From: an uncultured delta proteobacterium
Lineage (GTDB): Bacteria > Desulfobacterota > Binatia > Bin18
DNA: 64,000 bases
Reading direction: 5' to 3'
Assembly: GCA_963733195.1 (NCBI GenBank)
Contig: CAVTCR010000056.1
Location: forward strand, 128,001-192,000
Each line of letters begins with the position of its first letter. The stretch's first letter is position 1. Position numbers and translations under genes: made by a program. The notes beneath the pieces were generated by a model. The model had not been told where the DNA came from. It saw nothing but the letters and a program-made list of their open reading frames with translations, and made no database searches. Positions 1,293 through 35,388 of this stretch are shown in pieces.

Positions 1293-2834
1293 TCACGCTT
1301 CTAAGCGGATGCCGGTGCCGAGTTCCTCTCCGGCATACTGCTCGACGAGTCCATTGAGGGCCTGCCCGACTTCATGGAGGCGCTGCGCAGCTTTTTCGAT
1401 TTGTCGCATACCTTCGACGTTCTGCGAAGCCGCCTGTTTGACACTTCCCATTGCTTGGACAACTTGATCCATGCCCACAAGTTGCTCCTGGTTCGACAGC
1501 GCGATATGAGTCACTGACTGTGCTGTTCTAGCGATACTCTGCGAGAGTTCCTTAATCGACTGATGAGCCTCAATAGAGCGAGCGACCCCAGTTTCGATCG
1601 CATGCGTGCCCTGTTCAGTAACTAAAACGGCGGCGTGGGTAGCATGCTGGATTTCTTGGAGGATCTCTTTGACCTGAGCGGTCGCCCGCTTCGATTGCTG
1701 AGCAAGGTTCTTAACTTCGTGGGCCACAATGGCGAAGCCTTTCCCGTGTTCTCCGGCTTTGGCGGCTTCGATAGCAGCGTTCACAGCCAGCAGGTTCGAT
1801 TGCTCTGCCAACTCATTGACGGATTCGACAATCGTGCCGATGGCGTGGCTGTGTTCTCCGAGTGTGATGACGCTTTGAGCAATTGATGTAATTTGCTGAT
1901 TGGCCTGTTGGAGTCCAGAAAGTGCGGCATCAGTTGCGTGCTCGCCAGTTTTGGAAACTGAGGCTGCCTGCTGCGCCTCTGAGGACACCTCCTTCGCCCT
2001 TTGTCCGGCGATATAGGTTGTCTGTTTCACTTCTTCGATAGTCGTGGCAGTCTGGGTGACTGCGGCGGCTGTCTGTGAGGTACTAGCGAGCAGTTGTGCC
2101 AAAGAGCGCATGATTTGACTTGTCGATTCAGTAAGAATTTGCATTCCTGTATGAAGCTGTTCCTCAGCCAGCCTCCGTTCGCTGACCTTTCGCATGAGAT
2201 CTGTATTCAGGAGGTCAGTTTTTCGCTTTTCATCACGTAAAGAAAAGTGTAACTCTGAGGAGAAGATGATCGCCTGATTGAAAGTTTTTGCCGTCCGCAA
2301 GGTGAGGAGGACGAAGAGTCCGGTAAGGAGCGCGAGCCAAGCTGAAGAGGTACTGGATTGCCAAAGTAACACGAGTATGAGGGCAATGGGTGTAGGAATA
2401 ACCGCGAGCCAAATTGCTGGCAAAATCGTTGAGAAGGTCGCGGCCGCCGTTCTGCCGATAATGATGACGATCACGAAAGTGCGGTCGTCGCCTGAAAGGA
2501 ATGGTAAGAACAACAAGGGGACCAGCAGCCACACGAGCCCAATACTGATTGCTGCTCCCATACCCAGTCGATACCAAGACTGAAGATGCGCATCCTGATC
2601 ACTGTCCTGTTGGTAGCGATTTGCCAAGATAAGCCAGGTCGCTGCAGCTGTAAAAGCAAAAGCCAGCCAACTAAAGAAAACCCAGTGCGGGAGGAGGTCC
2701 CAAAGTGCTATTGCCATGAGGAATGCAACAATAATGAGGGAAATGTTCGAGACTTTGGCGTTGGCAAACAACAGTTTCACCTGTTCAGCGAGTACATAGT
2801 TTTCGCTTGAATGGATAGGCGTTGTATTGTTCAC
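1293..2834 (-). CDS. methyl-accepting chemotaxis protein with multi-pass (about 5-6 TM) integral-membrane sensor domain, WspA-like signalling domain
   Basis: MCP hairpin signature [38 protein letters not shown]-terminal ~190 aa is a series of hydrophobic helices. GTG start with AGAGG RBS. Confidence 0.93.
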
Positions 2835-3371
2835 AGCATGAACCTCTTATAAGGAGACCGATGGAGAAAGAGCGGATGCCTCACGCGCCTGTGGTTACCG
2901 AAACTGCATGATCATTCGAGAGTAAATATCCAATATGCGACCCGACAATCACCCCACTGGCTATATAATACAGAAGATCGGGTAATCTGGATGACATCTT
3001 TACGTTTCCAGTCAAGATCACTTCACGTGATATTTTATCCTCTACAGAGTCGGTACAGCTATTCTCGGGTCGGGACGATTGGGTCACACATAGGGTATGC
3101 TTTCGTATGCAACTCTACCCGGCGCAAAGAAGTCCGACAGAACGATCAGATCAAGCCTAGCGAATTTCCTACTCCCCAGGTTATCTATCGGCGCATCCCT
3201 ATAGAGATTTAGTAGAGCTGAGGAAGAGAACAGAGTGCAGATGATGGCAACAAAGCGAGCGACCAACGAAAAATTTCTTAATGAAAGAGTTGGCGACCTG
3301 TTCGAGGTAGCAAGTGCTCCGAGGAAAACTGAAACGGGTAATCCATTGGCTACTGGCGAGTGAAACCGACT

Positions 3372-5477
3372 CTAAGCCGCAGCATGTAGCCGAAAGTCAG
3401 TTAACTGGGCCCGTAAGCGTGTAAGCTGCTCTTCGAGGTCGGTCAGCAGCAGGGGAGCAAGAGAGAGGTCTCCATGACGGCCCGTGAGTTCAAGACGGGA
3501 CGTGGTGTCGATGGCTGCGATGGCAGCGAAATTACCTAATGCGCCCTTTAATGCATTCGCACTATACGCTAATGCTTGACCATCTTGTCGTGTAATCGCC
3601 TCGTGCATCTGTCTGAGTGCCTTTGGATACTCTTCAAAAAAAAGCACAGTCATTTCATCGAACAACTCAGTATCGCCTTCAATACGAGCCAAGGCTTCGT
3701 GCAGATTTACCTCCATAGCCTCTTTATTTTTTGTCGGTGATATTGCAAGAGATAGTTGCTGTCCCCCTTTAGAAAGACTGCACCCGTCAATCGTTATCTT
3801 GAGACTTTCTGAGAGCAACGGTTTGCTCACAACGGCATCCATGCCTGCTGCAAGGCACTGAGCACGTCCGTCATCGCTCTGTGATTGGAGCACTCCGATC
3901 AACGGAGTATACACCCCTTCTTGCTGGTCGTGCTGACGAATCTGAATTGCGGCGGCGATTCCATCAATCCCGGGCATTTGTGTGGGGAGCAGCACGGCGG
4001 CATAGGGAAGGCGAGCATTCGCCTCTATGGCTTCACGCGCAGTTATGGCAACGTCAGCACGGTATCCTAATTCTTCAACGAGATGCACGGCATGTTTTTG
4101 GTCAGGGAGGTTACTATCAACAATCAGGATACGCGCCCGCCCACGCGTTCGTGCTTCTGCCAATGTATAGCGGGTGACTAGTGGTAAGTCGGGAGCGAGG
4201 GGCTGCGGTGGTTGTCCAAGAACTGAGGTCAGACACTCGAAAAGGAGAGGCGAGGAGACTGGGTACGTTAGGTATGCATCAAAACCGGCTTGACGGATCT
4301 GGCGTGCATCGCCTTTTTTCCCGCTTGTGGAGATGAAGACGAGACGCAGCGTCGCGAGCGCCTCGGTCGCACGAACACGCGCAGCAAGTTCCAGCGCGTC
4401 GGCCTCAAGTTCCTGACAGTGTATAAGAACGATATCGTAGGCTTGGTTTTCCTGGACGGCTGTTGTCAGTATCGACCAGGCTTGAGGGTAACGAAAGACG
4501 GAGCGGCTTGTCAGTCCCCATATGAAGGTATCTTCATCTGAGAGAGAGAAATCGCTGCTGACAAGGAGTAAACGGACTCCCGAGAGACTCGTACGGGGAG
4601 GCGAATCAGAAAACACCTTAGAAGGTTGCTTCTCTAGCATCAATGTGAACCAAATCGTTGTGCCGACATCTGGTGTTCTCTCGACTTCCAATTGTCCGCC
4701 GAAGGTTTTGACTAACTGTTTGCTGATCGCAATGCCATCCGCATGTTGGTCGTAGGGGGAGGAATATCCCCTATTTTCTGTCGTCGGCAGCTCCTGAGGA
4801 GATACTCCAGCGGGAAGAGTCGTCGAATTCAGGGTAGAGACAGAGAAGCGAAAAGTAGCATGGGTTGACGTTTGCTGCACGAGCATGCCACGTATCGTAA
4901 TCTCACCATGAGTGATAGTCGACATCGCATAGTCGATGAGATTTATTAAGATAAGTCGGATATCACCGGGATCGCCACGAAACGGCGTCGGACTGTCGGC
5001 AGAAAAGAGGCAGGAAAGTTCAATCTTTCTTTCCTTCGCGATGGTCGTGAAACGAGAAACGGTCTCTTCGACGGTTGTGCGCAAATTGAAATCGATTGGT
5101 TGAGAGGCAGCTAAATCAAAGGTGTAGAAATCTGCGAGCCGACGTTCAGGGGCAGTAGGAAGTGGAGGCTGTATGGAAGGCTCGTGGGGCGCGGTGACCT
5201 GGCGCTGCTGGATTGTCGGGCGTGGTGACGCAGGAGTACTGCGTGTGAATATTTCTTTTTGCCGAGAGCTGCGTTGAAACCTCAAAGCAAATCGAAAGCT
5301 TCCAATGAAGAGAGCTGAAAGAAGGGCGAGGCTGGGGAGGAGTGCTATATCGGTAACGTAAAGGCCCACAGTAACTATGAGAATCAGGAGAAAAAGCGAA
5401 AGTATCATAAGCAAAGACCGGGATGTTGGGACAGGTATGGGGGATTGTTCGACGGGAAATCTTTCTTTACTGGGCAT
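3372..5477 (-). CDS. degenerate (pseudo) hybrid histidine kinase: 2 TM - HATPase-like - pseudo-REC - pseudo-REC - pseudo-Hpt
   Basis: Collinear with the 7338-10859 kinase (FRGDPGDIRLILINL, GTTIWFTL, AGFDAYLT, VTRYTLAEA, EALARIEGD), but H-box absent and N, G1, G2 boxes, both receiver Asp and the Hpt His replaced. Start placed at ATG 5477; the ORF-track start 5633 overlaps the upstream gene. Confidence 0.85.
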   Translation of the reverse strand: MPSKERFPVEQSPIPVPTSRSLLMILSLFLLILIVTVGLYVTDIALLPSLALLSALFIGSFRFALRFQRSSRQKEIFTRSTPASPRPTIQQRQVTAPHEPSIQPPLPTAPERRLADFYTFDLAASQPIDFNLRTTVEETVSRFTTIAKERKIELSCLFSADSPTPFRGDPGDIRLILINLIDYAMSTITHGEITIRGMLVQQTSTHATFRFSVSTLNSTTLPAGVSPQELPTTENRGYSSPYDQHADGIAISKQLVKTFGGQLEVERTPDVGTTIWFTLMLEKQPSKVFSDSPPRTSLSGVRLLLVSSDFSLSDEDTFIWGLTSRSVFRYPQAWSILTTAVQENQAYDIVLIHCQELEADALELAARVRATEALATLRLVFISTSGKKGDARQIRQAGFDAYLTYPVSSPLLFECLTSVLGQPPQPLAPDLPLVTRYTLAEARTRGRARILIVDSNLPDQKHAVHLVEELGYRADVAITAREAIEANARLPYAAVLLPTQMPGIDGIAAAIQIRQHDQQEGVYTPLIGVLQSQSDDGRAQCLAAGMDAVVSKPLLSESLKITIDGCSLSKGGQQLSLAISPTKNKEAMEVNLHEALARIEGDTELFDEMTVLFFEEYPKALRQMHEAITRQDGQALAYSANALKGALGNFAAIAAIDTTSRLELTGRHGDLSLAPLLLTDLEEQLTRLRAQLTDFRLHAAA

Positions 5478-5520
5478 GGTTGAGAAACCTCTTATTAGCA
5501 TAAACGGAGGTTTGTGATCC

Positions 5521-7155
5521 TTATGCTGCTGCCTCCATTTTGAGCGTAGTGAGAAGTGGCGCGAGGCGTGCAAGTTCTGCCTCGAGTTCGGCGAGGGCGG
5601 TTTTTGCTTGTGTGAGGTTCCCTTGACGCCCAATTTTTTCCAACTTCAATGCAGCTTCGAATACGCTCGAGGCAGCAAAATTTGCGACTGACCCTTTCAG
5701 GGTGTGTACGGCGTAGGTGAGAGTTTGGGCGTTCCCGTGCGAAAGCGCGTCTTGCATCGTGACCAACAGGAGAGGGTATTCATCAAGGAATACACCGGCC
5801 ATCTCGCTCAATAACTCGCGATCACCATCAACACGATTGAGGGCTTCGTCGAGGTTCAACATGTGCTGAGATGAAGCGCTCCCAAGCTGCAGAGGCAGTG
5901 GGATCAAGGATCCTTGCGCTGACATTGCAGGAAAAGGTACCACTTTCGTCTGTTGCTCTTCTTTTTTTGAAGGGTCTTTTGCGATGGCAAATTGGGATGG
6001 GGCTGCAAAGGACTCAGATTGTTCGAGCAGAGAAGCCGAGGAGGAATACGCTAGAGAGTCATTACTCGCCACATCCGCAAATTGAAACTGAATAGCCGGA
6101 GAGGCAACACCTTGCAGTTCTGGTGTGGTCAGAGATGGCGACATAGAGATACTGACTGCAGATGGCGTAGATGAGGGTATGTCCTGAAATGCTGGAGAGG
6201 TCGGGACGTGATTCTCCAGGTTCTCTGTAGAGAAGGGCACAGAGGACGTGGAGGTCGTCTGCGAGAGTGGTGAGTATCCTGCCGGATAGTGCGTCGTAGC
6301 ATTATTTTCTGATTGAGGGGTCGATTGCATCCACGGAAGCACCGCCGTGTCCGTCGTTCCTGGCATGGTCCCTGGAATCGTGCTGGTTTCCAATCGTGAG
6401 GGAGTGGTCTGCGTGGCGATTCCCATTTTTTTCAGCGCTGCCCGCTTGGTCGTATCGCGGTAGACGCCTTGAAACCCAATGGGTACTCCATTTTTGTCGG
6501 TAATGGCACGCGTACGTGCTTCAATGGGTATCGCCGTGCCATTATGATGGAGTAGTTCGAATTCAAAGAGTGAAGGCATCTTTTCGCCGCCTTGAAAGCG
6601 GCGAATACGATCTTCGATGAGCGCGAGGGAAGAGATAGGAAGTATCGTACTATAGTGCTTACCGACGATCTCTTCTCGAATCTTTCCAAGCATAAGTTCG
6701 AATCCACGATTGACGCTGGTCAACGTCCCATCCAGAGAAATTGTAGCGATTCCATCGTTCGTATTTTCTACAAGCGTACGGTAAAATTCTTCGCTTGCCC
6801 GCAACGTTTCTTCGATCCGTCGTTGCTTGGCGAGTTCGGCTTTGAGCTCCATTACTACTTGTGTGAGCTTGGTCGCGCTCGCCTCGCCTTGTGCATTTGG
6901 GCGAACGGATGTGGAGAGTCGTTTTGCTCGCGCAATTATTTGTCCGAGAAAAAGGATGAGAAGTGGAATACTATCGATAAACCAGTGCAACGGTTGTGTC
7001 GTTTGTACTGCAAGGATGCTCGAGAATGAGAACGGCAGCCCATGCCGCAGGAGGTCAAGAACTGTTGCACCAATCGGTAAGCAACACCCGATTATCAGTA
7101 ACAGTGCGGTAGATTGATCGGCTGAAAACTTTGCCCGAATGGAAGATTTGTCCAT
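5521..7155 (-). CDS. membrane protein: 2 TM - PAS - long Ser/Thr/Pro linker - Hpt (no kinase domain)
   Basis: PAS (YRTLVENTNDGI...VNRGFELMLG...QGVYRDTT); C-terminal Hpt YAVHTLKGSVANF with His intact. Confidence 0.88.
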   Translation of the reverse strand: MDKSSIRAKFSADQSTALLLIIGCCLPIGATVLDLLRHGLPFSFSSILAVQTTQPLHWFIDSIPLLILFLGQIIARAKRLSTSVRPNAQGEASATKLTQVVMELKAELAKQRRIEETLRASEEFYRTLVENTNDGIATISLDGTLTSVNRGFELMLGKIREEIVGKHYSTILPISSLALIEDRIRRFQGGEKMPSLFEFELLHHNGTAIPIEARTRAITDKNGVPIGFQGVYRDTTKRAALKKMGIATQTTPSRLETSTIPGTMPGTTDTAVLPWMQSTPQSENNATTHYPAGYSPLSQTTSTSSVPFSTENLENHVPTSPAFQDIPSSTPSAVSISMSPSLTTPELQGVASPAIQFQFADVASNDSLAYSSSASLLEQSESFAAPSQFAIAKDPSKKEEQQTKVVPFPAMSAQGSLIPLPLQLGSASSQHMLNLDEALNRVDGDRELLSEMAGVFLDEYPLLLVTMQDALSHGNAQTLTYAVHTLKGSVANFAASSVFEAALKLEKIGRQGNLTQAKTALAELEAELARLAPLLTTLKMEAAA

Positions 7156-7337
7156 GAGAGCCTCGATATCTAGTGAAAGGGATACATCTGCTCACCGTCA
7201 TTCACGAAAACTATCGGGAAATCGGGAAAAACATTTACCCGAAAAAACCAGGTCGACGAAGCGGACCGAAGATCCTGGCATTGTATCTATTCCGACGACC
7301 TTCATGCTGCGTCTTAAGTAACAAGCAGTTCGACTGT

Positions 7338-10859: not shown

Positions 10860-10908
10860 GGCAGTTCCTTCACTCTTCCTTCGCACGCTCCGTTCTACCA
10901 GCGGGCTA

Positions 10909-11961
10909 TTAGACTTTCGGCACGAGCTTCACTAACGCCTCCACAATACGCTCCGGAGACAGCACATGCACAGCAGCTCCGAGGTGAATGGCCTCGCCCG
11001 GCATGCCATGGACAGCAGAGCTTTCTTTATCTTGGGCGATCGTGATTGCTCCTTTTTCACGGAGAACTTTGAGTTCTGCCGCTCCATCTTTTCCCATACC
11101 TGTCAATAACACTCCAATGGCTTGATTACCAAGAGTCTCGGCGACTGAACGAAATAGATGCGAAACGGCAGGTCGCAGGTTATTTTCCGGAGGAGTTTGG
11201 CTAAGTATGGCACAAGGCCCACGCTCGATGCCAAGATGAAAACCGTCCGGAGCCAAGTACGCATGGCCGGGCAACAGGAGATCTCCGTGGGCAGGAATAC
11301 GAACTGGGAAATGGGTGACTTGGCTTAACCACTCGACCAGACCCGGTAAGAATCCGACGGCAATGTGTTGGACAATGAGAACGGGCACAGAGAAGTGTTT
11401 CGGGAGACTGGAAAGCAAGATCTGGAGAACCGGTGGTCCACCCGTGGAAGCTCCGATGGCGACCACTTTTATTGCCGTTGTGGGGTGGGACATTTCTGGC
11501 AGCGGCGGAACGACGAGCTGAGCAGGCTGTTCGATCTGTCGTCGCGGCCAACGTCGTACCACTTTGACTTCCGACATGAGCTTGATGGTTTGCACGAGCT
11601 GCTGGGCAGTTGATGCAAAATCCTTATGCCCAAGTCCGCGGGGTTTCTCAACGCCGGCTAGCGCTCCGGCCTCCATTGCACGAAACGTAGTCGCAACTTC
11701 CTGCGGATCCCAATTGGCACTGACAATCACAATTGGTACCGGCGTGGTTTCCATAATTCGACGTGTCGCGTCGAGCCCATTCATCTGCGGCATATTGAGA
11801 TCCATAGTGATCACATCTGGACGTTGCCGCGTCACGAACTCGACGGCCTCTGCGCCATTATTGGCTGTCCCAATGACACTGACCTCAGGATCGGTGCTCA
11901 GAATATGCCCAATGAGTGCTTGTTGGACCGGAGAATCTTCGACAATGAGGACTTTGACCAT
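10909..11961 (-). CDS. cheB: chemotaxis response regulator protein-glutamate methylesterase (WspF-like)
   Basis: N-terminal REC plus methylesterase motifs IGASTGGP, IVQHI, LLTGMGKDG. Confidence 0.96.
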   Translation of the reverse strand: MVKVLIVEDSPVQQALIGHILSTDPEVSVIGTANNGAEAVEFVTRQRPDVITMDLNMPQMNGLDATRRIMETTPVPIVIVSANWDPQEVATTFRAMEAGALAGVEKPRGLGHKDFASTAQQLVQTIKLMSEVKVVRRWPRRQIEQPAQLVVPPLPEMSHPTTAIKVVAIGASTGGPPVLQILLSSLPKHFSVPVLIVQHIAVGFLPGLVEWLSQVTHFPVRIPAHGDLLLPGHAYLAPDGFHLGIERGPCAILSQTPPENNLRPAVSHLFRSVAETLGNQAIGVLLTGMGKDGAAELKVLREKGAITIAQDKESSAVHGMPGEAIHLGAAVHVLSPERIVEALVKLVPKV

Positions 11962-11983
11962 AGTGACGGTTCCTTCTTCTTTT

Positions 11984-14900
11984 TTAGATCAGTCGCTGGA
12001 TGACATCCAGCAGGTTGCTTTGATCGAAGCTGGTTTTCACGATGTAGGCATCCGCACCCACGGTGATGCCACGCTCGCGGTCTTCGCGCGAATCGAGGCC
12101 GGTGACCAAGACGACAGGGATCTGTGCTACCTGCTCGGTCTCGCGAATCTTTGCGGTGAGTTCGAATCCATTCATCCGAGGCATTTCGACGTCTGACACC
12201 ACGAGATCAAAATCCGTCTTTTTCAGGAGGGAAAAGGCGTCAGCGCCATCGACGGACGTGGTGACTTGATACCCCGCTGACTCAAGAATGCCTTTGAGCA
12301 GCATACGTGAGGTGACGGAATCTTCGGCAACGAGGACGGACTTTTTGAGCACCTCGTTGTCGTCGTCGGCTGTGAGCATAAGCGTATGCCTCCCTCCTGT
12401 TTCACTTGCAGACTTCAGCAGGTCCGGAACATGGAGAATAGGAACAACCTTTCCTGAACCCAAGACGGTTGCTCCTGCTACATTTGGCACCTGAGATAGA
12501 AACGTCCCAAGACCTTTAAATAGCACTTCTTGTTCGTTTTCTACTTCATCAACGCAACACGCGATCCGCTTCTCTGCTGAACCAAGAATGAGCGCAAGCT
12601 GGCCGTCCTCGTCTGCATGTTGAGATCTTTTGCGCGGGAGTTGTAAGAGCATGTCAAGATTGACGAAGGCGATTGGGCGTCCGTCGAGAAAAATAGTTTC
12701 TTTGCCTTCGATTGTTTTGATGTCCCCTCGCTTGATCCGTGCCACACGTTCGATACTGGTTGTGGGGATGACAAAGGTATGGCCAGCGGCTTCTACGAAT
12801 ACGCCTCGAAACGTTGCGAGGGTAAGGGGAACGACAATCCGGAACGACGTGCCTTCACGGAGATGCGTCTCAACCGAGATCTGTCCGCCTAGTTTCTCAA
12901 TCTTCTCTCGAACAATGGCCATGCCAAGCCCACGGCCGGAGATGTCCGTGACAATTGGACTGGTGGAAATCTCGGACTGGAAGATCAGGGCAAGCGCGGC
13001 TTGCTCATCAAGTGCTTCTGCAGCCTGTGCAGAAAGGTACCCCTTCTTTACAGCCGCCTGTGCCACTTTTTCATGATCGATTCCTCCGCCGTCATCGGAG
13101 ATGACAATCTCGACTGAACTGCCACTAGTCTGCGAAACGGTAATGACGATGGTCCCACGTGGTGGCTTTTCGTAGTGCGTGCGCACCTCCGGGGTTTCAA
13201 TCCCGTGGTCAAGACTGTTACGAAGCAGATGGACCAGCGGCGTTTTCAGTTCTTCGAGAATGCGTTTGTCGATTTCTACCTCACTCCCTCGGGTGAGTAA
13301 TTCGACTTCTTTGCCGAGACTGCGCGACAAATCTCGGACCATCTTCGGAAAAATTTCAAGGAGTGAGGAGAAGGGCATCATGAGGACACGTTTGGTATTT
13401 TCCAGCAAATTATCAACTAGTGCTCCGACTGTTTGCTGGTCGTGTTCCGCAGCTTTTACTAATCCCTTCAGTCGATTCTCGATAGCAATGAACTGCTGCT
13501 CATTCCAGTAGATGAAGTCGACCAAAAGTGGCCCTGTTTGTGTGTACGAGTCATTGTGTTGTGCCCAATCGTCCGTAGCCTCAAATAACCGTTGCATTTT
13601 GCGGACTTCGGATGAGATTTTTGACCATTCCTTGCGCCATTCTCCCAACAGTCCCATCATGTCTTTGAGGTCCGAGGCGTGTTGGTTGAGCGAAAGTTTC
13701 GCAGATAACATCTCTTCCGCTTGTAGGAAGAGCGAATCGAGCTTGGCGGTTGTCACTCGAATGGTGTCTTCTCCAACCGGTTTCGCTGGCACATTTAGTT
13801 GATCGCTATGACCACTGCTTTGCCCAAGTGTAACCGTCTTTTCCCTAGTGCGGTCAGCACGCGAGTGCTCTATTGGTACCGCGGGAGCGGATGACACAGG
13901 AGAAAGGGTCGGTGAGAGGTCTGCCCCAAGTGGTTGAGAGGGTGCGACAAGAGGAGGCTTTTGTGTTGGTGCCGCCGGATTGGCTGGTGCTGGGTGTTGG
14001 TCCACCCCTATGGCTCCATCGGTTTCCAATCGAATTAATCGTTGAACCGCTTCCGCGATTTGCGTTGCATGTGGCTCGTTAGGTTCACTTAACAGCACCT
14101 CGACGGTATCAAGGCTTTGGTGAATAGCATCGAATCCTTCGAGGGAAAGCTGAAGCTCGCCACGCTTGAACCGTGCAAAGACGCCTTCCAGTGCTTGGCA
14201 TACGGCTTCCACATCCGTCAGGTCGACAGCACGAGACGCACCTTTGAGACTGTGCGCCTCACGGAAGATTGTTTCTAACAGAGGCTGTTGCTCGTCAGGT
14301 CCGTTCGCCTTCTCCAATGCCACTACCCCGGCGACCATAGCTTTGAGGTGCTCATCGGCTTCCAGACGGAAGGTCGCAATCAGTTTCTCGAGGAAATCAC
14401 TAGTAGAACCTGCTCCTACAAGTTGTGAGACACTAGGCAGTGGTGCTTGCAGAAAGTTACCTTTGGACGAGGTTGCATCGATGGGTGAGGGGGCTGCGGA
14501 AAGAAGGGTGTAGGGTTCCTCGCCCATCGAACTTGTGGGTGAGGTTGCATGTGGAGGGGACGAGGGAGAGAGGCTGTGTTCTGCAGGAAGAGAAATGGTT
14601 AATGAGGTCTGAAGCGCAGTCTCCTCTGATACTGAAGAGGTGGTTTCAATCTTCGCCGATGGAGCTGTTCTTTGGTGGCTCTCAGTTTCTAATTGGGAAA
14701 GCCTTTGTACCGTCTCTGCGACCTGTGTCGCGTGAGGTCCATTGGGTTCTGCTAATAGTGCGTCCACTGTGTCTAACGCATGATGGACGATATCGAAGTC
14801 TGCTGGTATCAGTACCAGCTCCTGGCGCTTCATCTTTGCAAAGACCCCTTCCAATGCCTGGCATACCGCTTCGACTTCTGTGAGATCGACCGCCCGTGCC

Positions 14901-15079
14901 GCACCCTTGAGACTATGAGCTTCGCGGAAAATGGTTTCTACGATCGGTGTCTGTTCGTCCGGAGTCGTGGCTGTCTCCAGGGCAAGCAACCCACTGATCA
15001 TAGCTTTGAGGTGCTCGTCGGCTTCTAAACGAAAGGTGGCAATTAACTGGCTCAGAAAATTACTGTTCGCGCTGCTCAT
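11984..15079 (-). CDS. cheA: CheA/WspE-like hybrid chemotaxis kinase with two tandem Hpt domains and C-terminal receiver
   Basis: IFREAHSLKG occurs twice; HLLRNSLDHGIE, DDGGGID, SGRGLGM, CheW domain, REC LVVSDVEMP. Confidence 0.95.
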   Translation of the reverse strand: MSSANSNFLSQLIATFRLEADEHLKAMISGLLALETATTPDEQTPIVETIFREAHSLKGAARAVDLTEVEAVCQALEGVFAKMKRQELVLIPADFDIVHHALDTVDALLAEPNGPHATQVAETVQRLSQLETESHQRTAPSAKIETTSSVSEETALQTSLTISLPAEHSLSPSSPPHATSPTSSMGEEPYTLLSAAPSPIDATSSKGNFLQAPLPSVSQLVGAGSTSDFLEKLIATFRLEADEHLKAMVAGVVALEKANGPDEQQPLLETIFREAHSLKGASRAVDLTDVEAVCQALEGVFARFKRGELQLSLEGFDAIHQSLDTVEVLLSEPNEPHATQIAEAVQRLIRLETDGAIGVDQHPAPANPAAPTQKPPLVAPSQPLGADLSPTLSPVSSAPAVPIEHSRADRTREKTVTLGQSSGHSDQLNVPAKPVGEDTIRVTTAKLDSLFLQAEEMLSAKLSLNQHASDLKDMMGLLGEWRKEWSKISSEVRKMQRLFEATDDWAQHNDSYTQTGPLLVDFIYWNEQQFIAIENRLKGLVKAAEHDQQTVGALVDNLLENTKRVLMMPFSSLLEIFPKMVRDLSRSLGKEVELLTRGSEVEIDKRILEELKTPLVHLLRNSLDHGIETPEVRTHYEKPPRGTIVITVSQTSGSSVEIVISDDGGGIDHEKVAQAAVKKGYLSAQAAEALDEQAALALIFQSEISTSPIVTDISGRGLGMAIVREKIEKLGGQISVETHLREGTSFRIVVPLTLATFRGVFVEAAGHTFVIPTTSIERVARIKRGDIKTIEGKETIFLDGRPIAFVNLDMLLQLPRKRSQHADEDGQLALILGSAEKRIACCVDEVENEQEVLFKGLGTFLSQVPNVAGATVLGSGKVVPILHVPDLLKSASETGGRHTLMLTADDDNEVLKKSVLVAEDSVTSRMLLKGILESAGYQVTTSVDGADAFSLLKKTDFDLVVSDVEMPRMNGFELTAKIRETEQVAQIPVVLVTGLDSREDRERGITVGADAYIVKTSFDQSNLLDVIQRLI

Positions 15080-15336
15080 CGTTCCCTCGCACGTGCATTG
15101 GATCTCGACTTCCTATCCTCGGTGGCTCCAGCGTGCCTTGCGACTCCCGAGTGAATACACTCGTGCATGCTGTTTGAGAAGCAAGATCGTGCCTTGTCTG
15201 CTAGGACAATGATGATGCTCACGAGGATTGTGGTACCCCCTGTGGACTGGACCTCAGAGTGTAATATCGAGAGAAAGAGGGGAATCTTTAGAGAAAACGG
15301 GGTACATCATAACGAGAGTATCTTAGTCCTCCGGAG

Positions 15337-15984
15337 TCACTCCTCGTGGTTGCCAAGTCGTATACTAGTCAGCAGTTTAGTTGCATCTAAAACTACCACT
15401 CCCTCGTTCGTGATCCCTTGAAGATAGCGAGCGCGTGAATTGGCTAGAGTTGAGAGTGGCGGATGGATTGTTGCTAGAGGAAGACTGCGGATACCTATGC
15501 CCAGATCCGTGACAATCCCGACCTCGAGCTCCCCAGCTTTCATCAGGATCACCGTGCTTTGCTCAGATATCTGCCGTCTGGCTAAGCCGAGCACAGAGGC
15601 GAGATCAACGACCGGAAGGATACGACCGCGGACATTGATAACGCCAAGAACAAAAGCAGGAGTACATGGGAGCGGTGTGAGCCCCTTGAGTGGATATACC
15701 TCGCGGATAGCGATCGAGGGAAGGGCATAGGTTTCCTCCCCAAGATGGAACTCGGCAACTTCGAGTTGGAGCCCCGTGGCCTCCGTCTCTTCTCGTGGAC
15801 GTGCGAGGGTTTGGGCACGTGCTTTCAACAGTGAGAGTTTCTCTTCTGTAGTTAACCCAGTTCTTTGCTGCGTTGCCTTTTGCATCTGTGCCATTTTCTG
15901 CTGGACCGCCTGCCAATCGATCGGAGTACCAGAGGAAATCCCAGTGGTCTGCAGAGAACTCTTCGTCAGGTTCGGATTCATCAT
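15337..15984 (-). CDS. cheW: chemotaxis coupling protein CheW (WspD-like, N-terminal extension)
   Basis: LLKARAQTLARP...LTPLPCTPAFVLGVINVRGRILPVVDL. Confidence 0.93.
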   Translation of the reverse strand: MMNPNLTKSSLQTTGISSGTPIDWQAVQQKMAQMQKATQQRTGLTTEEKLSLLKARAQTLARPREETEATGLQLEVAEFHLGEETYALPSIAIREVYPLKGLTPLPCTPAFVLGVINVRGRILPVVDLASVLGLARRQISEQSTVILMKAGELEVGIVTDLGIGIRSLPLATIHPPLSTLANSRARYLQGITNEGVVVLDATKLLTSIRLGNHEE

Positions 15985-15998
15985 TACACTCCTTAGTA

Positions 15999-17567
15999 TT
16001 ATCGCGGAAGCATCGTGCGGATGAGATCGGATAATCTCCCGGCTGTCAGACCTTCGGATTCTGGAATAATCCTCGCATGCTCGTACCGATGAAGTAGCGC
16101 GAGTGCATTCTGGAAATGTCGACGGGCGTTCTTAATTTTCTTTTGTCGGAGAGAGAGGTTCCCCAGGGTGAAATGCGCGAGTATAAACTCGCTATCGAGG
16201 TATAATGTTTGTCTGAGAGCCTGGGTTGCTTCTTCTTCCCGGCCTTGCTCGAGGAGGACGGTAGCTAAGAGGTAATAGAATCGCGGATTCAATACATCTG
16301 TGGCGATCGCTCTGTGGCACCAGGCAATGGCTTCGTCAAGTGCACCTTGGTTCGTACAGGTGCGAATCAGCAGGAGCGTTTCCTCTTGATTAAGAGGAGA
16401 CGGCTCTTGCTCCTGGGACAACAACACGTCGCGTAATTTCTCGCTCGCCTCAGTATAGTGACCTTGTCTGTATAGAGTTTGTGCTTCTGCGTAGGCTGCT
16501 GACGCCTGATTCGACACTGGAAACAGTTTGCCCTCGAGTGTCGGAGTAGAATTCGGGAGTATTGCCACAAGCTGTTCGTTTTCCTTGATCTGTGTGGAGA
16601 ACAATGGCTCAGCCAGGGCTTTCAGATCAGACAGGTGTTGAGCGTGCGGACGGCTGGAGGTCCCTGCCAGTGACGGTAGGGCAAGTGGCTTCTCTCCGAA
16701 CGCTGACTGATGGGGATGTACACCTTTGCGATGGACAATGATGCCCGGCAAGGGGATGGCCGTAAAAGGGGACTGTGAGAGATACGGTGTCTCACTTGGA
16801 CTGACGATTAACCATCCACCCTCAGCGAGTGTATAGTGGAAATTACGAATCACCGTTTGTGCTCGTTCTGATGAGAAATAAATGAAGACGTTGCGACAGA
16901 AGATGACGTCAACCGTAGCCGTGGTGTTCAGCGGGGGAGGAAAGACTTCGTCTGCGAGATTGAGCGGGAAAAAAGTCACCATTTGTTTGATCTCTGGGCA
17001 GATCACGAACCGACTGTCAGTCGTACGTTGAAAGTAGCGGGTCTTGATCCATTCTGGGGTGTTACGGAAGGACCAGTCGGTATACACACCGCTTGTGGCA
17101 CGCTGTAAAAACCGAGGGTTAATATCCGTTCCGATGATTGAGACACGCCAGTCGGAAAGCTGTGGACTCATCGTGGCAAGCGTGATGGCGATGGAATACG
17201 GCTCCTCGCCGGTACAACAGGCGGCGCTCCAAATACGGATGTGTCGTTCCCCGGATTGTCTATCCTGTATGAGTGCTGGAAGGATCTGTGTCGTCAGCAC
17301 TTCGAGTCCTCGATGTTCACGAAAGAAGTAAGTCTCACCTACAGTGAAATGGTCAGCGAGTACGGCGATTTGTTGCTGCGTGAGCGGAGCGGAATGTAAC
17401 CAGTCAATACAGGCCTGGACATCGGAAAAGCCAAGATCGCGGGCGGCTGCACGAATCCCACGTTCGAGATCGTGCCAGCGGTCAGACGGGAAATGCCATC
17501 CCATTCGCGTGGCAATGAGACTACTGAATTGTGCAAGGACAAAATCTGGAAGCGAAGTGACGGGCAT
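15999..17567 (-). CDS. cheR: CheR methyltransferase with C-terminal TPR domain (WspC-like)
   Basis: TVGETYFFRE, RIWSAACCTGEEPYS, GTDIN, FCRNVFIYF; TPR-like C-terminus (ALRQTLYLDSEFILAHFTLG). Confidence 0.94.
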   Translation of the reverse strand: MPVTSLPDFVLAQFSSLIATRMGWHFPSDRWHDLERGIRAAARDLGFSDVQACIDWLHSAPLTQQQIAVLADHFTVGETYFFREHRGLEVLTTQILPALIQDRQSGERHIRIWSAACCTGEEPYSIAITLATMSPQLSDWRVSIIGTDINPRFLQRATSGVYTDWSFRNTPEWIKTRYFQRTTDSRFVICPEIKQMVTFFPLNLADEVFPPPLNTTATVDVIFCRNVFIYFSSERAQTVIRNFHYTLAEGGWLIVSPSETPYLSQSPFTAIPLPGIIVHRKGVHPHQSAFGEKPLALPSLAGTSSRPHAQHLSDLKALAEPLFSTQIKENEQLVAILPNSTPTLEGKLFPVSNQASAAYAEAQTLYRQGHYTEASEKLRDVLLSQEQEPSPLNQEETLLLIRTCTNQGALDEAIAWCHRAIATDVLNPRFYYLLATVLLEQGREEEATQALRQTLYLDSEFILAHFTLGNLSLRQKKIKNARRHFQNALALLHRYEHARIIPESEGLTAGRLSDLIRTMLPR

Positions 17568-17578
17568 ACCCCCCACTT

Positions 17579-18037
17579 TCAGGCGGCTTGTAGGGCCTTG
17601 TCCAAAGTACGCTCTTCGTCGAACGACAAGCAGGCCTCGAGGTCATGAATGAGGATGACACCATCCTCTTGCTTTACTGCACCAGTCACGTGTTCTATGG
17701 AAGGCAGGATATCGGCTCGATGGACGATAGCCTGTTTAGAAATATCGATAACGCCGATGACCCTATCGACGGTCAGTGCGACCGTCCGCCGCGGCGTGTG
17801 GGCGATGATAAACTGATCTGCCGGGTCAAGGGTACGCTCGGGTAGCTGAAAACGCCGTCGCAGATTGATCACTGGTATCACTTGTCCTTGAACGTTAATG
17901 ATCCCTATGACAATGCCTGGAGCCTTGGGGAGTGGGGTGACATAGGCAGCAGGGACGACTCGCTCAACGTTCGGTAACGGTAAGGTGTACTGCTGATCAT
18001 CAAGGGTGAAGATCACATGTTGGTCAAACAGGCCCAT
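17579..18037 (-). CDS. cheW: chemotaxis coupling protein CheW (WspB-like)
   Basis: VTPLPKAPGIVIGIINVQGQVIPVINLRRRF. Confidence 0.93.
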   Translation of the reverse strand: MGLFDQHVIFTLDDQQYTLPLPNVERVVPAAYVTPLPKAPGIVIGIINVQGQVIPVINLRRRFQLPERTLDPADQFIIAHTPRRTVALTVDRVIGVIDISKQAIVHRADILPSIEHVTGAVKQEDGVILIHDLEACLSFDEERTLDKALQAA

Positions 18038-18294
18038 AACTCCTATACCTCCAATATGTGGATGCGCGGAGGGTCGTGCGGGTGCCGTCGGTGTCTGACT
18101 CGCCTCACAGAATAATGATAGAATATCACTTTAAGTGAATATTAACCAACAAATATCTTCTACCTTGTCATCATCTCGCGGCAGAAAGAGGCAGAGTGAC
18201 CTACGCAACTGCCGACACTTGCTGCAGTATATCGGTAGCTTTCCCTGTGTCCTTAATCGACCTGTAGGTCGCACCTGCAGTGACCAGTACGTAT

Positions 18295-20554: not shown

Positions 20555-20605
20555 GAATTCTCTCCGTCCGGTAGCGATAATGGTCAGGTGAGCCGAGGAA
20601 TCGGT

Positions 20606-23169: not shown

Positions 23170-23193
23170 AGTCGTAGTGATCCTCAGGTTTGT

Positions 23194-26100
23194 TTAGGCT
23201 GCGAGCTCCGCTTTCAACGACGAGAGCGCCTCTCGCAACCGTGCTAGTTCCGTTTCGAGAATGTCTACAGCGGGTGAAGCCTGCTCGATGTTACCGCGTG
23301 TCCCTATTTGTTCTAACTGCGCGATAGCCATGAGTGCTCGTTTCGCTGCGAAGTTGCCCACTGAGCCTTTCAGGGTATGGATTGTGTACGCGAGTGAGTG
23401 AGGGTCTTTGTCGCTGGCAGCTGCCCGCATTTGCTCCAGCAGTTTCGGAGAACTTTCCCAGAAAAGGTCGGTTAATTCTGTCAGCAACGTAACATCACCA
23501 TCGACCAGGGAGAGCAGCTCAGTACGATCAAAGATCTCTTCTGGAGTGGGGGGAGCTTCCTCTTGTTGGCCCATTGCGGTGCTCTTCCCTTGTTGGGCAA
23601 CTTGTTCCAGCGTGGCAAACAATTCTTCTGCTCGCAACGGCTTACTGACGTATCCATCCATGCCAGCCGACAGGCAATGTTCTTTGTCTCCTACCATCGC
23701 GTGCGCAGTCATGGCGATGATGAAGATGTGGGTCTCACTCTTTTGCTCGTACTCGCGAATAGCTGCGGTTGCTTCCATACCATTCATGACCGGCATTTCG
23801 ACATCCATAAGGATCGCATCGAACGGGCCGTTCTGGAGAAAACTCTCGTATGCCTCTTTCCCATTGGTCGCGACAACTGCCTCGTGACCCCATTTCTGTA
23901 AGAAACGCACGGCTAGTTTCTGGTTGACGGCGTTATCCTCGGCTACCAATAGCCGCAACACGCGCCGACTCTTTTGTGCGAATGGAGTTTTCGATTTGCG
24001 TGTTTCCTCGACGACTTTGCCTCGTGCCTTGAGAAGCGCCGTCAATAACTCTGACGGGCGAATTGGTTTCAACATGAAACCCGAGAGGCCCATCTGTTGA
24101 CATCGATCTCGCTCTTCTTTCTGGTCGGATGACGTCAACATCATCAATGTTGCCCCTGCAATCGCCGGTGTTTCGGTGATTTGCTGGGCAAGTGTAAACC
24201 CATCCGTCTTTGGCATGTGCCCGTCAATCAGCACGAAGGCGAACGGTTGGGCTTTCGTCTTTGCCTCTTGCATGAGGGCAAGGGCATGTTCTGCCGAATC
24301 GGCAAGATGTGGAACCATCCGCCACGAGGTCATGAGATCTTTGAGAATGCGTCGGTTGGTAGCGTTGTCGTCAACGATCAGCACTGGCAACCCTTGCAGT
24401 TCTTCAACGGCGACAGGGGTGGTCTCTTCTTGCCGGGTACCGATGCCGAGTCGGGCAGTGAAGTAGAATGTTGAGCCTTGATTCTCTTCGCTCTCAAGCC
24501 ACAGATAACCCTCCATCAATCTCACAAGCTGGGTCGAGATTGCAAGACCAAGGCCGGTTCCTCCGTACTTTCGATTGATGGAAGTATCGGCTTGAGAGAA
24601 CGCTTGAAAGATAAGGTGCTGTTTGTCCTTGGGGATACCAATTCCGGTGTCGCGGACAGCAAAACGTAGCTCTACCTCGTGTTCCTCGCCCCTTGTTTTT
24701 TCGACATGGACAGCGACCTCGCCCTTCTCGGTGAACTTGAGTGCGTTGCCGACCAGATTGGTGACAACTTGACGTAAGCGGCTGGAGTCGCCAATCACGA
24801 GGTCTGGAACATCTGCGGCGACTTCATACAGCAGCTCCAAGCCTTTTTGGTGTGCACGAAAGGCGAGTGCTTTCATTGCGTCACCGAGATTCTCACGGAG
24901 AGAGAAATTCACCGACTCCAGATCCAGTTTGCGGGCTTCAATTTTGGAGAAGTCGAGAATGTCGTTCAGAAGCGCAAGTAAGGCTTCGGCAGAACTTTTT
25001 ACGGTTTCTGCGTACTCACGCTGCTCTGAGGTCAGAGAGGTATCGAGAAGGAGCTCAGTCATGCCGATGACACCGTTCATCGGTGTACGGATCTCATGAC
25101 TCATATTGGCCAAAAATTCCGATTTTGCCTGGCTCGACTGTTCGGCGATTTCTTTTGCTTGTTGAAGCGAGAATTCGACCTGTTTGCGATCGGTAATATC
25201 TCGCCCAGTAACCACGACCCCACTGACTTGGCCATTGGCCTCTGTGAGCAGGGCGGCTTTCCAATGGTACAGCGCCGTAGATCCGTCTTTCCCAAGAAGT
25301 ACTGCCTCCAGCGTTCGTTGGCTTTCGCTGCTCTCTTCAGAGAGCATTGCCGTGATACGGTCGTGTTCCTCTTCTGCGAAGAACTGAATCGCCGGAAGCC
25401 CTGACAGTTCATCGCTAGAGTAGCCTGAAGCATGCTCGAACGCCGCGTTCCATTTGCGTATCCTCCCCTGTTGGTCGACAACAAAGAAGGCATCTGGGAG
25501 TGCTCTGGTGAGTACCTCGTGCTCGCGGAGAGTGTGGGTCAGTGTCTCTTCGCTGTGTTTGCGTTCTGCAATCTCAGCATGGAGGGCTGCGGTATCCTGT
25601 TCAAGGTCGACGGTATGTTCCTGTAATCGCCGCTCGAGATCTTCCTGAAGTTGGTGCAGGGATTCTTCCAACGTGTGCCGTGTGGTCTGTTCATTATGAA
25701 GCGAGGCTTGGAGCTGCTCAACTTCAGCCACCTGCTCATGGAGACGCCGCTCGAGATCTTCCTGAAGTTGGCGCAGGGATTCTTCCAACGTGTGCCGTGT
25801 GGTCTGTTCATTATGAAGCGAGGCTTGGAGCTGCTCAACTTCAGCCACCTGCTCATGGAGACGCCGCTCGAGATCCTCCTGGGTCTGACGTAATGCTGTT
25901 TCTGTTTGCTGGCGTGCTTCTCGTTCGGCTTCTATAGCACTATTGGCTTGAGCTGTTTCCCTTGTGTGTTCCTGGGCTTGATGGTCGAGCTGCTCTTGTG
26001 CCTGGCGGAGAGAGGCTTCGAGGGTTTGTCGTCCGACCTGATCATCGTACAACGTCGCCTGCAATTGTTCGATTTCAGCGGTGCGTTCTTGAAGGCGACG

Positions 26101-26820
26101 TTCGAGGTCACTCTGACCCTGACGGAGTGCTTCTGCAGCCTCACGCTGCGTTGCTAACTCACTCTGAAGTGTTTCATTTGTTTGGGTAAGTTCTCGTGTC
26201 CGTTCCTCGATGAGTTGCTCTAACTCCTGTGCTTGAAGAAGGACCTCTCCAGCTTGACCCTGAGAGGCATCCCACTCAGGAGCATCTTCAGGTGTTGGCC
26301 CGTGTTTGCCATTGGCAAGTGCGGGGGTGCCGGCTGACTGATCAAGGGTTGGCGGCTGTAGTTGCTGTCCTGCCACTAGGTGAAGCGTCGGAGGAGAGGA
26401 AGGTTCGACCAGGGCAGGTTTTTGGGAACTCGGTATTGTTCCTGCACCGATATGGAGCGCGACCTTCCGGAGAAGAATGTCTCTTTGAATGGGTTTAACT
26501 AGGTAGTCAGCGGCCCCAAGGGAGAAGGCCTTTGCCCGTTCCTCTCCTTCTTCCTGGGCGGTGACAAAGATGATGGGGATGGTGGCAAGGGTTGGGTTCG
26601 TTTGAAGATGTGAGCATACCTCGTAGCCATCCATGATTGGCATGATGGCATCGAGCAGAATGAGGTTCGGTTTGATCTTCTGCAGGGTTGTTAAGGCACG
26701 CGCACCACTGTCGGCAGTGAGTACCGAGTACCCATTACTTATGAGTGAGCGTTCGATTGCCCGCAGTGTCACCTTGTCATCATCAACACACAAGATGATT
26801 GGGGCTGTGGAGCCATCCAT
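23194..26820 (-). CDS. hybrid histidine kinase REC - long repeated coiled coil - PAS - HisKA - HATPase - REC - REC - Hpt
   Basis: All canonical motifs intact ([36 protein letters not shown]). ATG 26820 preceded by GGGGAGAG. Confidence 0.95.
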   Translation of the reverse strand: MDGSTAPIILCVDDDKVTLRAIERSLISNGYSVLTADSGARALTTLQKIKPNLILLDAIMPIMDGYEVCSHLQTNPTLATIPIIFVTAQEEGEERAKAFSLGAADYLVKPIQRDILLRKVALHIGAGTIPSSQKPALVEPSSPPTLHLVAGQQLQPPTLDQSAGTPALANGKHGPTPEDAPEWDASQGQAGEVLLQAQELEQLIEERTRELTQTNETLQSELATQREAAEALRQGQSDLERRLQERTAEIEQLQATLYDDQVGRQTLEASLRQAQEQLDHQAQEHTRETAQANSAIEAEREARQQTETALRQTQEDLERRLHEQVAEVEQLQASLHNEQTTRHTLEESLRQLQEDLERRLHEQVAEVEQLQASLHNEQTTRHTLEESLHQLQEDLERRLQEHTVDLEQDTAALHAEIAERKHSEETLTHTLREHEVLTRALPDAFFVVDQQGRIRKWNAAFEHASGYSSDELSGLPAIQFFAEEEHDRITAMLSEESSESQRTLEAVLLGKDGSTALYHWKAALLTEANGQVSGVVVTGRDITDRKQVEFSLQQAKEIAEQSSQAKSEFLANMSHEIRTPMNGVIGMTELLLDTSLTSEQREYAETVKSSAEALLALLNDILDFSKIEARKLDLESVNFSLRENLGDAMKALAFRAHQKGLELLYEVAADVPDLVIGDSSRLRQVVTNLVGNALKFTEKGEVAVHVEKTRGEEHEVELRFAVRDTGIGIPKDKQHLIFQAFSQADTSINRKYGGTGLGLAISTQLVRLMEGYLWLESEENQGSTFYFTARLGIGTRQEETTPVAVEELQGLPVLIVDDNATNRRILKDLMTSWRMVPHLADSAEHALALMQEAKTKAQPFAFVLIDGHMPKTDGFTLAQQITETPAIAGATLMMLTSSDQKEERDRCQQMGLSGFMLKPIRPSELLTALLKARGKVVEETRKSKTPFAQKSRRVLRLLVAEDNAVNQKLAVRFLQKWGHEAVVATNGKEAYESFLQNGPFDAILMDVEMPVMNGMEATAAIREYEQKSETHIFIIAMTAHAMVGDKEHCLSAGMDGYVSKPLRAEELFATLEQVAQQGKSTAMGQQEEAPPTPEEIFDRTELLSLVDGDVTLLTELTDLFWESSPKLLEQMRAAASDKDPHSLAYTIHTLKGSVGNFAAKRALMAIAQLEQIGTRGNIEQASPAVDILETELARLREALSSLKAELAA
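25628..25881. repeat. 117-bp near-perfect intragenic tandem repeat (39 aa, ~2.2 copies) inside a longer degenerate array
   Basis: cgccgctcgagatc at 25628, 25745 and 25862; encodes LQEDLERRLHEQVAEVEQLQASLHNEQTTRHTLEESLRQ. Confidence 0.95.
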
Positions 26821-27793: not shown

Positions 27794-28414
<621 letters not shown>

Positions 28415-28426
28415 CCAGGAGGGCGC

Positions 28427-29368: not shown

Positions 29369-29381
29369 GAAAGATAATGAC

Positions 29382-29462
29382 AATCGGAGAAACGGCGGGT
29401 GGGAGGAACATAGACGTGCGGTAATCCTCCGTCGATTCCCCGGGTCTCCGATTCTCCGTTTC
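29382..29462. repeat. 8-mer repeat hairpin (AATCGGAG/AAACGG ... CTCCGATT/CTCCGTTT) between pyrB and pyrC
   Basis: Left-arm units are reverse complements of right-arm units. Confidence 0.7.
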
Positions 29463-29489
29463 ATTTTAGGTCTCGTGTAGTGAATTGTT

Positions 29490-30773: not shown

Positions 30774-30866
30774 GCCATAGGCTTGAGGGCTTCCTTTTCC
30801 TCTAACCTGAAACCTCTCACCTAGAGCGATTTTAATGAGAGCTGATAGTTGACTACTGAAAACTTA
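30771..30866. repeat. 7-mer repeat hairpin remnants between pyrC and carA
   Basis: taggcca-taggctt-gagg ... cctctaa-cctgaaa-cctctca-ccta, followed by gctgata-gttgact-actgaaa. Confidence 0.6.
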
Positions 30867-30871
30867 AACTC

Positions 30872-35379: not shown

Positions 35380-35388
35380 TTTACTGCT

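Follow-up and report, generated by a model that had tools for sequence, protein, structure and literature searches.

A Wsp/Che3-type chemosensory island adjoining a receiver-fused PilB/GspE-like ATPase in a Binatia genome: a candidate phosphorelay to a type IVa pilus motor

Here we report the analysis of a chemosensory gene island encoded in a 64,000-nucleotide stretch (positions 128001-192000 of contig C56, CAVTCR010000056.1) of an uncultured soil bacterium of the Binatia (assembly GCA_963733195.1, designated G000; 6.9 Mb, 93% complete). The whole stretch is called the window below, and positions without a contig or locus label refer to it. On its minus strand, 13 open reading frames (ORFs) spanning 1293-26838 make up 12 genes, an ATPase gene that is split in two in the assembly being counted once (Table 1). 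As ordered by Pfam, transcription begins with a 1214-aa hybrid kinase and ends with a methyl-accepting chemotaxis protein (MCP). A che core, three hybrid kinases, a PAS-Hpt protein, a dead kinase paralogue and the MCP accompany the ATPase, which carries an N-terminal receiver (REC) domain and is the only non-signalling protein of the island; no GGDEF/EAL, flagellar or pilin domain was detected by Pfam in the island ORFs. This gene content had been proposed in the initial annotation of the stretch, from the twelve co-oriented genes to the ATPase as sole effector, and it is borne out by our analysis. The island is genuine, its components are of known kinds, and it is conserved in a single lineage. 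Its relay may end on the receiver of the ATPase, a candidate pilus motor.

Table 1. Genes of the chemosensory island in order of transcription (positions in the window; TM, transmembrane).
Feature	Position	Strand	Basis	Remark
Hybrid kinase REC-(coiled coil)-PAS-HisKA-HATPase-REC-REC-Hpt, 1214 aa	23194..26838	-	Pfam, alignments	likely ATG 26820
Soluble hybrid kinase HisKA-HATPase-REC-Hpt, 767 aa	20606..22909	-	Pfam, alignments, TM prediction	
REC-MshEN-T2SSE PilB/GspE-like ATPase, about 752 aa	18295..20554	-	Pfam, alignment, fold	without c-di-GMP motif
CheW	17579..18037	-	Pfam	
CheR-TPR	15999..17576	-	Pfam	
CheW (second)	15337..15984	-	Pfam	
CheA, Hpt-Hpt-HATPase-CheW-REC	11984..15079	-	Pfam, alignments	
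REC-CheB methylesterase	10909..11961	-	Pfam	above NCBIfam cut-off
REC-PAS-HisKA-HATPase-REC-REC-REC-Hpt, 1182 aa	7338..10886	-	Pfam, alignments, locus comparison	in WspR position
Two-TM PAS-linker-Hpt protein, 544 aa	5521..7155	-	Pfam, alignments, TM prediction	His intact
Two-TM pseudo-relay protein, degenerate HATPase-REC-REC-Hpt (753-aa ORF)	3372..5633	-		likely start 5501 or 5477
MCP, 513 aa, 40H-length signalling domain	1293..2834	-	Pfam, NCBIfam, TM prediction	

No TM segment is predicted in the 1214-aa kinase, whose gene contains a 117-bp tandem repeat at 25628-25881, and Pfam recognises no input domain in the 767-aa kinase. CheA carries two His-containing Hpt domains that are 72% identical to each other, and no P2 domain was detected in it by Pfam. 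About five TM segments are predicted in the MCP; at E 0.1, Pfam gives no family for the TM input regions of this protein, of the PAS-Hpt protein or of the dead kinase. The matched stretch of the MCP is 28 residues longer than that of Tar (267 vs 239) and close to that of CtpM (275 vs 268), and its 40H label rests on the heptad classes that we assume for Tar and CtpM. Because the GC content of the island (about 0.52) matches that of its flanks, composition gives no sign of a foreign island, and this idea was rejected as unsupported. Scans of the island for promoters and terminators gave results at chance level.

By its architecture the che core fits the alternative cellular functions (ACF; Wsp/Che3-type) class, which upholds the Wsp-like core of the initial annotation. 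Two marks of the class were found: a CheR-TPR fusion, associated with ACF systems (PMC3447774), and a multidomain regulator (REC-PAS-HK-REC3-Hpt) encoded directly after cheB. About 40% of ACF multidomain regulators carry a kinase module, and the REC-hybrid kinase is a known ACF output type (PMC3447774). The multi-Hpt CheA with a C-terminal REC does not separate the ACF from the type IV pilus (Tfp) class, the two classes that hold about 93% of multi-Hpt CheA proteins (PMC10542144). A REC-GGDEF WspR after cheB, as in Wsp proper, was not found by Pfam in the island, and both GGDEF matches of the genome lie on contig C62. The proposal that the ATPase stands in for WspR, the diguanylate cyclase of Wsp, did not hold, the slot after cheB being filled by the 1182-aa REC-hybrid kinase. 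We assign the WspR slot to this kinase and not to the ATPase because cheB genes of other Binatia are likewise followed by a REC-hybrid kinase: this order recurs in G002, G022, G003, G008 and G307 with no ATPase nearby, and four of these five genomes have no such ATPase. Across 15 mapped che loci the gene after cheB is usually a REC-hybrid kinase or a REC-REC plus kinase-Hpt pair, and REC-GGDEF was never detected there. Several of these loci have an MCP gene between cheW and cheA that is absent from the island, and no MCP remnant was found in its cheW-cheA gap. The 1182-aa kinase is likely the cognate target of CheA. The island is the only che cluster of G000, with all three CheW domains of the genome, and its CheA type is present in 13 of the 55 genomes of the family. 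The three MCPs of G000, one in the island and two elsewhere, are 48-57% alike. By eye, the MCP at G000:C73:60161-61666 seems to share a two-TM plus PAS input module with the PAS-Hpt protein (window 6800-7155).

The ATPase shows the marks of the PilB/GspE extension ATPase superfamily, namely a T2SSE domain, Walker A and B motifs, Asp and His boxes, a four-Cys Zn site and an N-terminal MshEN/N1 domain. A family search with its residues 140-340 retained 40 proteins from 1553 candidates, 37 of them with REC. The Walker A Lys, Walker B Glu, His box and four Cys are invariant in the 40 aligned proteins, and the phospho-Asp and Lys are kept in all 37 REC-bearing homologues; the Walker A tail is atypical (GKSM in 32 of 40). 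In the predicted structure (pLDDT 91.7) the N-domain forms a complete MshEN fold that matches XpsE-N (Z 11.7, rmsd 3.2, 130 aligned) and MshEN (Z 11.4, rmsd 3.0, 128 aligned). The first half of the c-di-GMP motif RLGxx(L/V/I)(L/V/I)xxG...LxxxLxxQ, perfect conservation of which is possibly not needed (PMC5013675), was matched in none of 68 and none of 40 rows, and we infer from the alignments that phosphorylation may have replaced nucleotide sensing in this family. The ATPase core scores about 395 bits against both PilB and GspE. Its intact orthologue in G010 stays below the PilB equivalog TIGR02538 (516 bits, cut-off 675.65) and the GspE equivalog TIGR02533 (528 bits, cut-off 630.25). An IQ-TREE tree of 43 of 80 rows supports the clade of the window's ATPase at 100/100; a position as sister to PilB, obtained with FastTree, was dropped after IQ-TREE left that fork open.

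The loci of the family number 86 (40 from genomes, 38 from metagenomes and 16 more from the Binatia, less seven duplicates and one without a domain call), many on short contigs, and the family spans the Binatia, Desulfobacterota, Nitrospirota, Planctomycetota, Actinomycetota and others. The ATPase starts with REC in 79 of these loci; 39 have a hybrid kinase and four a GGDEF gene within 5 kb of it, and in none was a PilC/GspF-like gene found near it. The REC plus motif-less MshEN module occurs on at least three separate ATPase clades (L048-L077, L096-L118), two of which (Desulfobacterota-type and Nitrospira-type) carry a second, C-terminal REC, and stand-alone REC-MshEN genes without ATPase occur in L073-L075. 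In G003 (L034:11472-15867) and G007 (L036:9226-13383), the REC-ATPase gene has a sigma-70 factor gene on one side and a REC-GGDEF gene on the other, without che genes.

As assembled, the ATPase gene of G000 consists of ORFs 19880-20554 and 18295-19875, in different frames, with the break within the MshEN domain. Four sequencing runs were compared at position 19907 (depth about 3, possibly one study). Contigs of two runs, X1 and X2, cross the site (13 and 9 differences per about 500 bases) and both lack the extra base found there in the assembly; X3 and X4 do not cross it. Orthologues are single ORFs of 732-801 aa. Single-base breaks also interrupt dnaK, pilT and both gspD genes of G000, so its split genes are not to be read as pseudogenes (pilT region, G000:C60:87156-88212; dnaK on C19, L127; gspD on C74 and C81). 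On the strength of the crossing contigs, the single-ORF orthologues and the other split genes, we read the REC-ATPase as one gene of about 752 aa, in which the base at 19907 is, as far as sequence can tell, probably an assembly error; given the split, the intact G010 orthologue served as the query in searches. A true pseudogene in this strain, which would leave the island without this output, would fit the frameshift and the decayed copies at the same site in G189 and G272, but is highly improbable when both near-identical crossing contigs lack the base, the other genes are split in the same way and the ATPase core shares 96% identity with an intact homologue.

The ATPase lies directly upstream of cheW in four genomes from three genera of one family (G000, G001, G010 and G018; the G001 and G018 contigs break inside the ATPase) and in five metagenome contigs (L081-L084 and L086). 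The ATPases are 82-94% identical across the three genera, and the che-linked ones tested form one clade (100/99). The linkage of ATPase and che genes, on whose conservation in relatives the initial proposal depended, is thus kept within the family and not outside it. The left half of the island was compared in G010 and G001 only; L082 and L086 end at the flanks. G010 has the whole island except for the MCP, reduced at the island end (L031:1055-1789) to a deleted, stop-containing remnant, and in G001 the dead kinase directly adjoins tenA, with no MCP; the MCP is not conserved at this site in relatives. The pyrR-tenA site of other relatives holds the ATPase alone (L088), a kinase and the ATPase beside tenA (L089) or the ATPase with a pilin pair (L093). 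Because these relatives carry the ATPase there without che genes, it looks like an old resident of the site, and the che cassette like a later addition in one lineage.

Such a history could also mean that two neighbours run two circuits, with the upstream kinases controlling the ATPase and a che cassette that merely landed here signalling elsewhere, for example to the REC-GGDEF protein on C62. A kinase and the ATPase without adjacent che genes are the common family state, cheB is followed by a REC-hybrid kinase in the five genomes named above (four without such an ATPase), and, as all che-linked loci form one clade, the linkage is one event; yet the adjacency of ATPase and cheW has lasted across three genera. 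The 257-bp gap between the two genes holds one weak promoter-like match (10 found vs 8.1 expected by chance), but no minus-strand terminator-like site is listed in it, the genes are all co-oriented, and the Hpt modules on either side of it are 38-57% alike. Moreover, six of the seven family genomes with an intact ATPase have the CheA type of the island and both with a decayed ATPase lack it, counts that come from related genomes. Weighing these points, we regard two separate circuits as a serious possibility that is probably not the case.

The phospho-sites of the relay are largely preserved. According to alignments, none of the three long kinases has lost its H-box, its N and G boxes, a receiver Asp or the Hpt His, and the Hpt His is also retained in the PAS-Hpt protein. 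The dead kinase has lost its H-box, its N/G ATP-binding boxes and both receiver Asp residues, and its Hpt phospho-His is replaced by Asn. Because its orthologues in G010 and G001 are equally dead, it is, judged by these residues, a conserved pseudo-relay protein. Five proteins end in related Hpt modules (38-57% identical), as the initial annotation had noted; the local paralogous expansion that it read from them is not shown, because modules 43-49% identical to that of the 1182-aa kinase sit on three other contigs of G000. The REC of the ATPase most resembles the N-terminal REC, the first of the 1214-aa kinase, at 68% identity (70% in L041, 69% in L086), compared with 45% for the next-best match among 77 tblastn matches in G000, which suggests that the two receivers share a phospho-donor.

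A machine that the ATPase could drive is encoded elsewhere in the genome. G000 has a type IVa pilus set (pilC, two pilA, pilM-Q, pilT/U), two type II secretion systems (T2SS) and a Tad locus, and no match to flagellin was found; the pilC, pilM-Q and gsp genes that the initial annotation had proposed to locate are thus present. None of the six PilB/GspE-like genes of G000 reaches the TIGR02538 cut-off, a level attained by a PilB in 17 of 41 sampled Binatia genomes. Two of its ATPases exceed the GspE cut-off, enough for its two T2SS. Since the type IVa machine is present and canonical PilB absent, the orphan ATPases are the only candidate extension motors, and extension must use at least one of the four, unless pilB is missing from the assembly. 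The three orphans besides the REC-ATPase (L004:271-2703, 810 aa; L005:1483-3786, 767 aa, with GAF; L006:457-2706, 749 aa) form a clade of their own (100/100), and two keep MshEN-like motif copies. In G000, aroE directly precedes pilC (C19:12374-14722, L127). The order aroE then pilC without pilB or pilT is seen in 11 of 30 Binatia pilC loci (L127, L133-L162), and 14 of 41 Binatia genomes combine a strong pilC match with no PilB above the cut-off, most of them keeping long orphan PilB-like ATPases. Between pilC and pilA lies a 670-aa ORF (L127:10733-12742), apparently a condensed PilS/PilR, whose N-terminus is hydrophobic and which has a sigma-54 activator domain; it is kept after pilC in most Binatia loci.

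Distribution and neighbours also point to pili. Of 38 carrier genomes from several phyla, 36 have a pilM above the cut-off, and within the Binatia pilM was found in 15 of 17 carriers, compared with 142 of 251 genomes overall (Fisher p = 0.009, overstated by kinship); the two Binatia carriers without it are G147, with a broken pilM, and G272, with an ATPase remnant only. A complex prediction for PilM and the N-domain of the ATPase, made for the G010 proteins with alignments, reached a score of 0.20 against a mark of 0.32. PilB exceeds its cut-off in 14 of 38 carriers, and because the majority of those beyond this lineage retain a PilB that is canonical or close to the cut-off, the REC motor is as a rule accessory. 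The ATPase has a pilin gene and a pilin-like TM gene as neighbours in 13 loci belonging to two ATPase clades (L049:3005-5270, L093:1130-1947, L205 and 10 more), of which 9 and 7 served to build the profiles, and pilins beside family ATPases have N-methyl motifs. The pilin-like single-TM protein, with conserved CIxxLW and CPxPxxH and no confident Pfam family, is encoded in six of 251 Binatia genomes, all of one genus and all ATPase carriers, and its partner pilin has a C-terminal CSxH. A scan of 92 of 166 unlabelled neighbours at E 1e-8 detected no pilus genes, the pilins falling below its length or E-value limits.

The same comparisons bear on two other roles for the ATPase. Under relay control it might power the pseudopilus of a T2SS or a small filament of its own: its score is slightly higher with the GspE model than with that of PilB, the tree leaves its position between the two open, XpsE gives the best fold match to the N-domain and G000 has two T2SS. 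We consider this unlikely, since both T2SS have an ATPase above the GspE cut-off while the pilus machine is without a canonical motor, family members adjoin pilins with N-methyl motifs, and the 86 loci have no PilC/GspF-like gene nearby. Less likely still is a signalling or inhibitory subunit, one that, for instance, poisons or tunes mixed hexamers with the other orphan PilB-like ATPases. The atypical Walker A tail, the stand-alone REC-MshEN proteins and the patchy occurrence of the gene (17 of 251 Binatia), usually far from machine genes, would suit such a subunit, but the catalytic and Zn-binding residues checked are invariant in all 40 proteins and the pilin pair adjoins the ATPase in 13 loci.

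The reading that we prefer is a relay from MCP to CheA, hybrid kinase, Hpt and motor REC that would control piliation, and we place it about midway between doubt and confidence; its phosphotransfer, the sign of this transfer and the docking are ones we infer. An ACF cassette with a multi-step His-Asp relay would have joined an older hybrid kinase and REC-ATPase module at the pyrR-tenA site, and its main output would be a phosphorylation-controlled accessory extension motor of the type IVa machine encoded elsewhere. The three ACF-type MCPs, the one in the island and the two elsewhere, would signal to CheA, which would phosphorylate the N-terminal REC of the 1182-aa kinase, as CheA3 does with CheS3 in Rhodospirillum centenum. 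From the internal RECs of this kinase, phosphate would pass to its Hpt and on to the REC of the ATPase. Through their related Hpt modules, the two upstream kinases and the PAS-Hpt protein may supply or drain phosphate, the copy of the motor REC on the 1214-aa kinase may give the same donor a means of feedback on the relay, and the dead paralogue may act as a membrane-anchored scaffold or competitor. A wider version, in which the lineage has dropped standard pilB and runs its pilus on interchangeable REC-, GAF- and c-di-GMP-type motors, the REC motor being the end-point of its sole chemosensory array with feedback through the receiver copy, is put forward only tentatively.

Several observations weigh against this pilus relay. 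Che genes lie within 5 kb of the ATPase in only six of the 86 family loci, seven of the 13 genomes of the 55-genome family that have this CheA type have no such ATPase, and the copies at the pyrR-tenA site in G189 and G272 are decayed. The ATPase falls short of both equivalog cut-offs (528 of 630 bits for GspE, 516 of 676 for PilB), and IQ-TREE leaves its PilB-versus-GspE fork open (AU test, p = 0.24 for joining GspE). G000 itself has two T2SS, three further orphan PilB-like ATPases and many other receivers (77 tblastn matches), including the REC-GGDEF protein on C62, and a profile search did not find the cognate pilin pair in it. The co-occurrence counts come from related genomes. G002 and G017 have neither canonical pilB nor full pilM; because these two pilB-less relatives lack full pilM and the ATPase itself has decayed in G189 and G272, the loss of pilB may reflect decay of the pilus within this family.

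Divergent from the island, an ordinary pyrR-pyrB-pyrC-carA-carB-recG operon (window 27878-37545) marks the site. Between the MCP and tenA lie a 258-aa ORF without a Pfam family (window 116-892) and about 6 kb with a piece of an IS110-type transposase (L126:12600-18000). The window intervals 44611-48206, 49608-50669 and 61304-63949 hold a DUF2797 gene and genes for an HpaB-like hydroxylase and, at 47079-48206, a T4-Rnl1-like RNA ligase, together with five ORFs that have no Pfam match at 1e-10.

The initial annotation did not recognise this architecture, the parts of which are known, from characterised systems. The REC-MshEN-T2SSE order was catalogued in 2016, with Geobacter metallireducens Gmet_3473 as an example and no reference given (PMC5013675, Suppl. 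Table 4), the Atlas has several clusters with REC, MshEN and T2SSE domains (55 to 3005 members), and a hybrid-kinase output is catalogued for ACF systems. A che system coupled to a REC-fused PilB was not found in the literature covered, that is, titles and the starts of abstracts outside subscription journals; there is no PilB or GspE entry in the regulator table of PMC3447774, no mention of receiver or fused forms in the PilB review PMC11656802 and none of PilB in the Geobacter che paper PMC2577667. What is new is the linkage of che genes to the motor, the absence of a canonical pilB, the duplication of the receiver, a relay paralogue with all its sites dead, and the pilin pair of the family. 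In the pilus systems of the literature consulted, the motor receives che signals by way of separate regulators or second messengers. If our reading is correct, a che-linked phosphorelay that ends on a receiver within the motor itself would be the most direct wiring possible; an ACF system would thereby gain an output, and REC-PilB-like ATPases, a large family that is apparently unstudied, a function. All relay proteins but two are soluble, so that phosphotransfer profiling is possible without culturing the host.

Among known systems, Pseudomonas Wsp shares the gene order cheW-cheR(TPR)-cheW-cheA(REC)-cheB, followed by a multidomain response regulator, and a 40H-length MCP. The island differs in having a REC-hybrid kinase-Hpt protein after cheB where Wsp has REC-GGDEF, two Hpt domains in CheA, an MCP displaced to the end and not conserved there, and four more Hpt proteins and a motor ATPase in the same orientation. 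The best template for the first step is Che3 of R. centenum, also an ACF system, in which CheA3 phosphorylates a receiver of CheS3, a hybrid kinase with an N-terminal REC, in a pathway from CheA3 through CheS3 to CheY3 (PMC3868531). There the last acceptor is the stand-alone CheY3 and the output cyst formation (PMC3868531), whereas the kinases of the island end in Hpt and the candidate last acceptor is fused to the ATPase. Gmet_3473, which has the domain order of the ATPase, is a table entry; the subfamily in the island is without the c-di-GMP motif and is linked here to a che cluster. PilB and GspE (PDB 5tsg, 3jc8, 4pht) have the same MshEN fold, ATPase core and Zn site, and TfpB of Acinetobacter baylyi, a precedent for two extension motors on one pilus (PMC8213720), has the orphan location of an accessory motor. 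Compared with these three, the ATPase of the island has an N-terminal REC, scores below all three cut-offs and forms its own clade. Chemosensory or REC phosphorylation signals also reach pilus motors in Pseudomonas Pil-Chp, Synechocystis Tax1, Myxococcus Frz and Xanthomonas DrdR, the last a REC protein that binds PilB and stimulates PilB/PilT, including the PilB ATPase (PMC13507683). These systems act through separate regulators (PilG/H, PATAN proteins, polarity proteins and DrdR, respectively), whereas in the island, whose che system is not of the Tfp class by architecture, the receiver is part of the motor chain itself.

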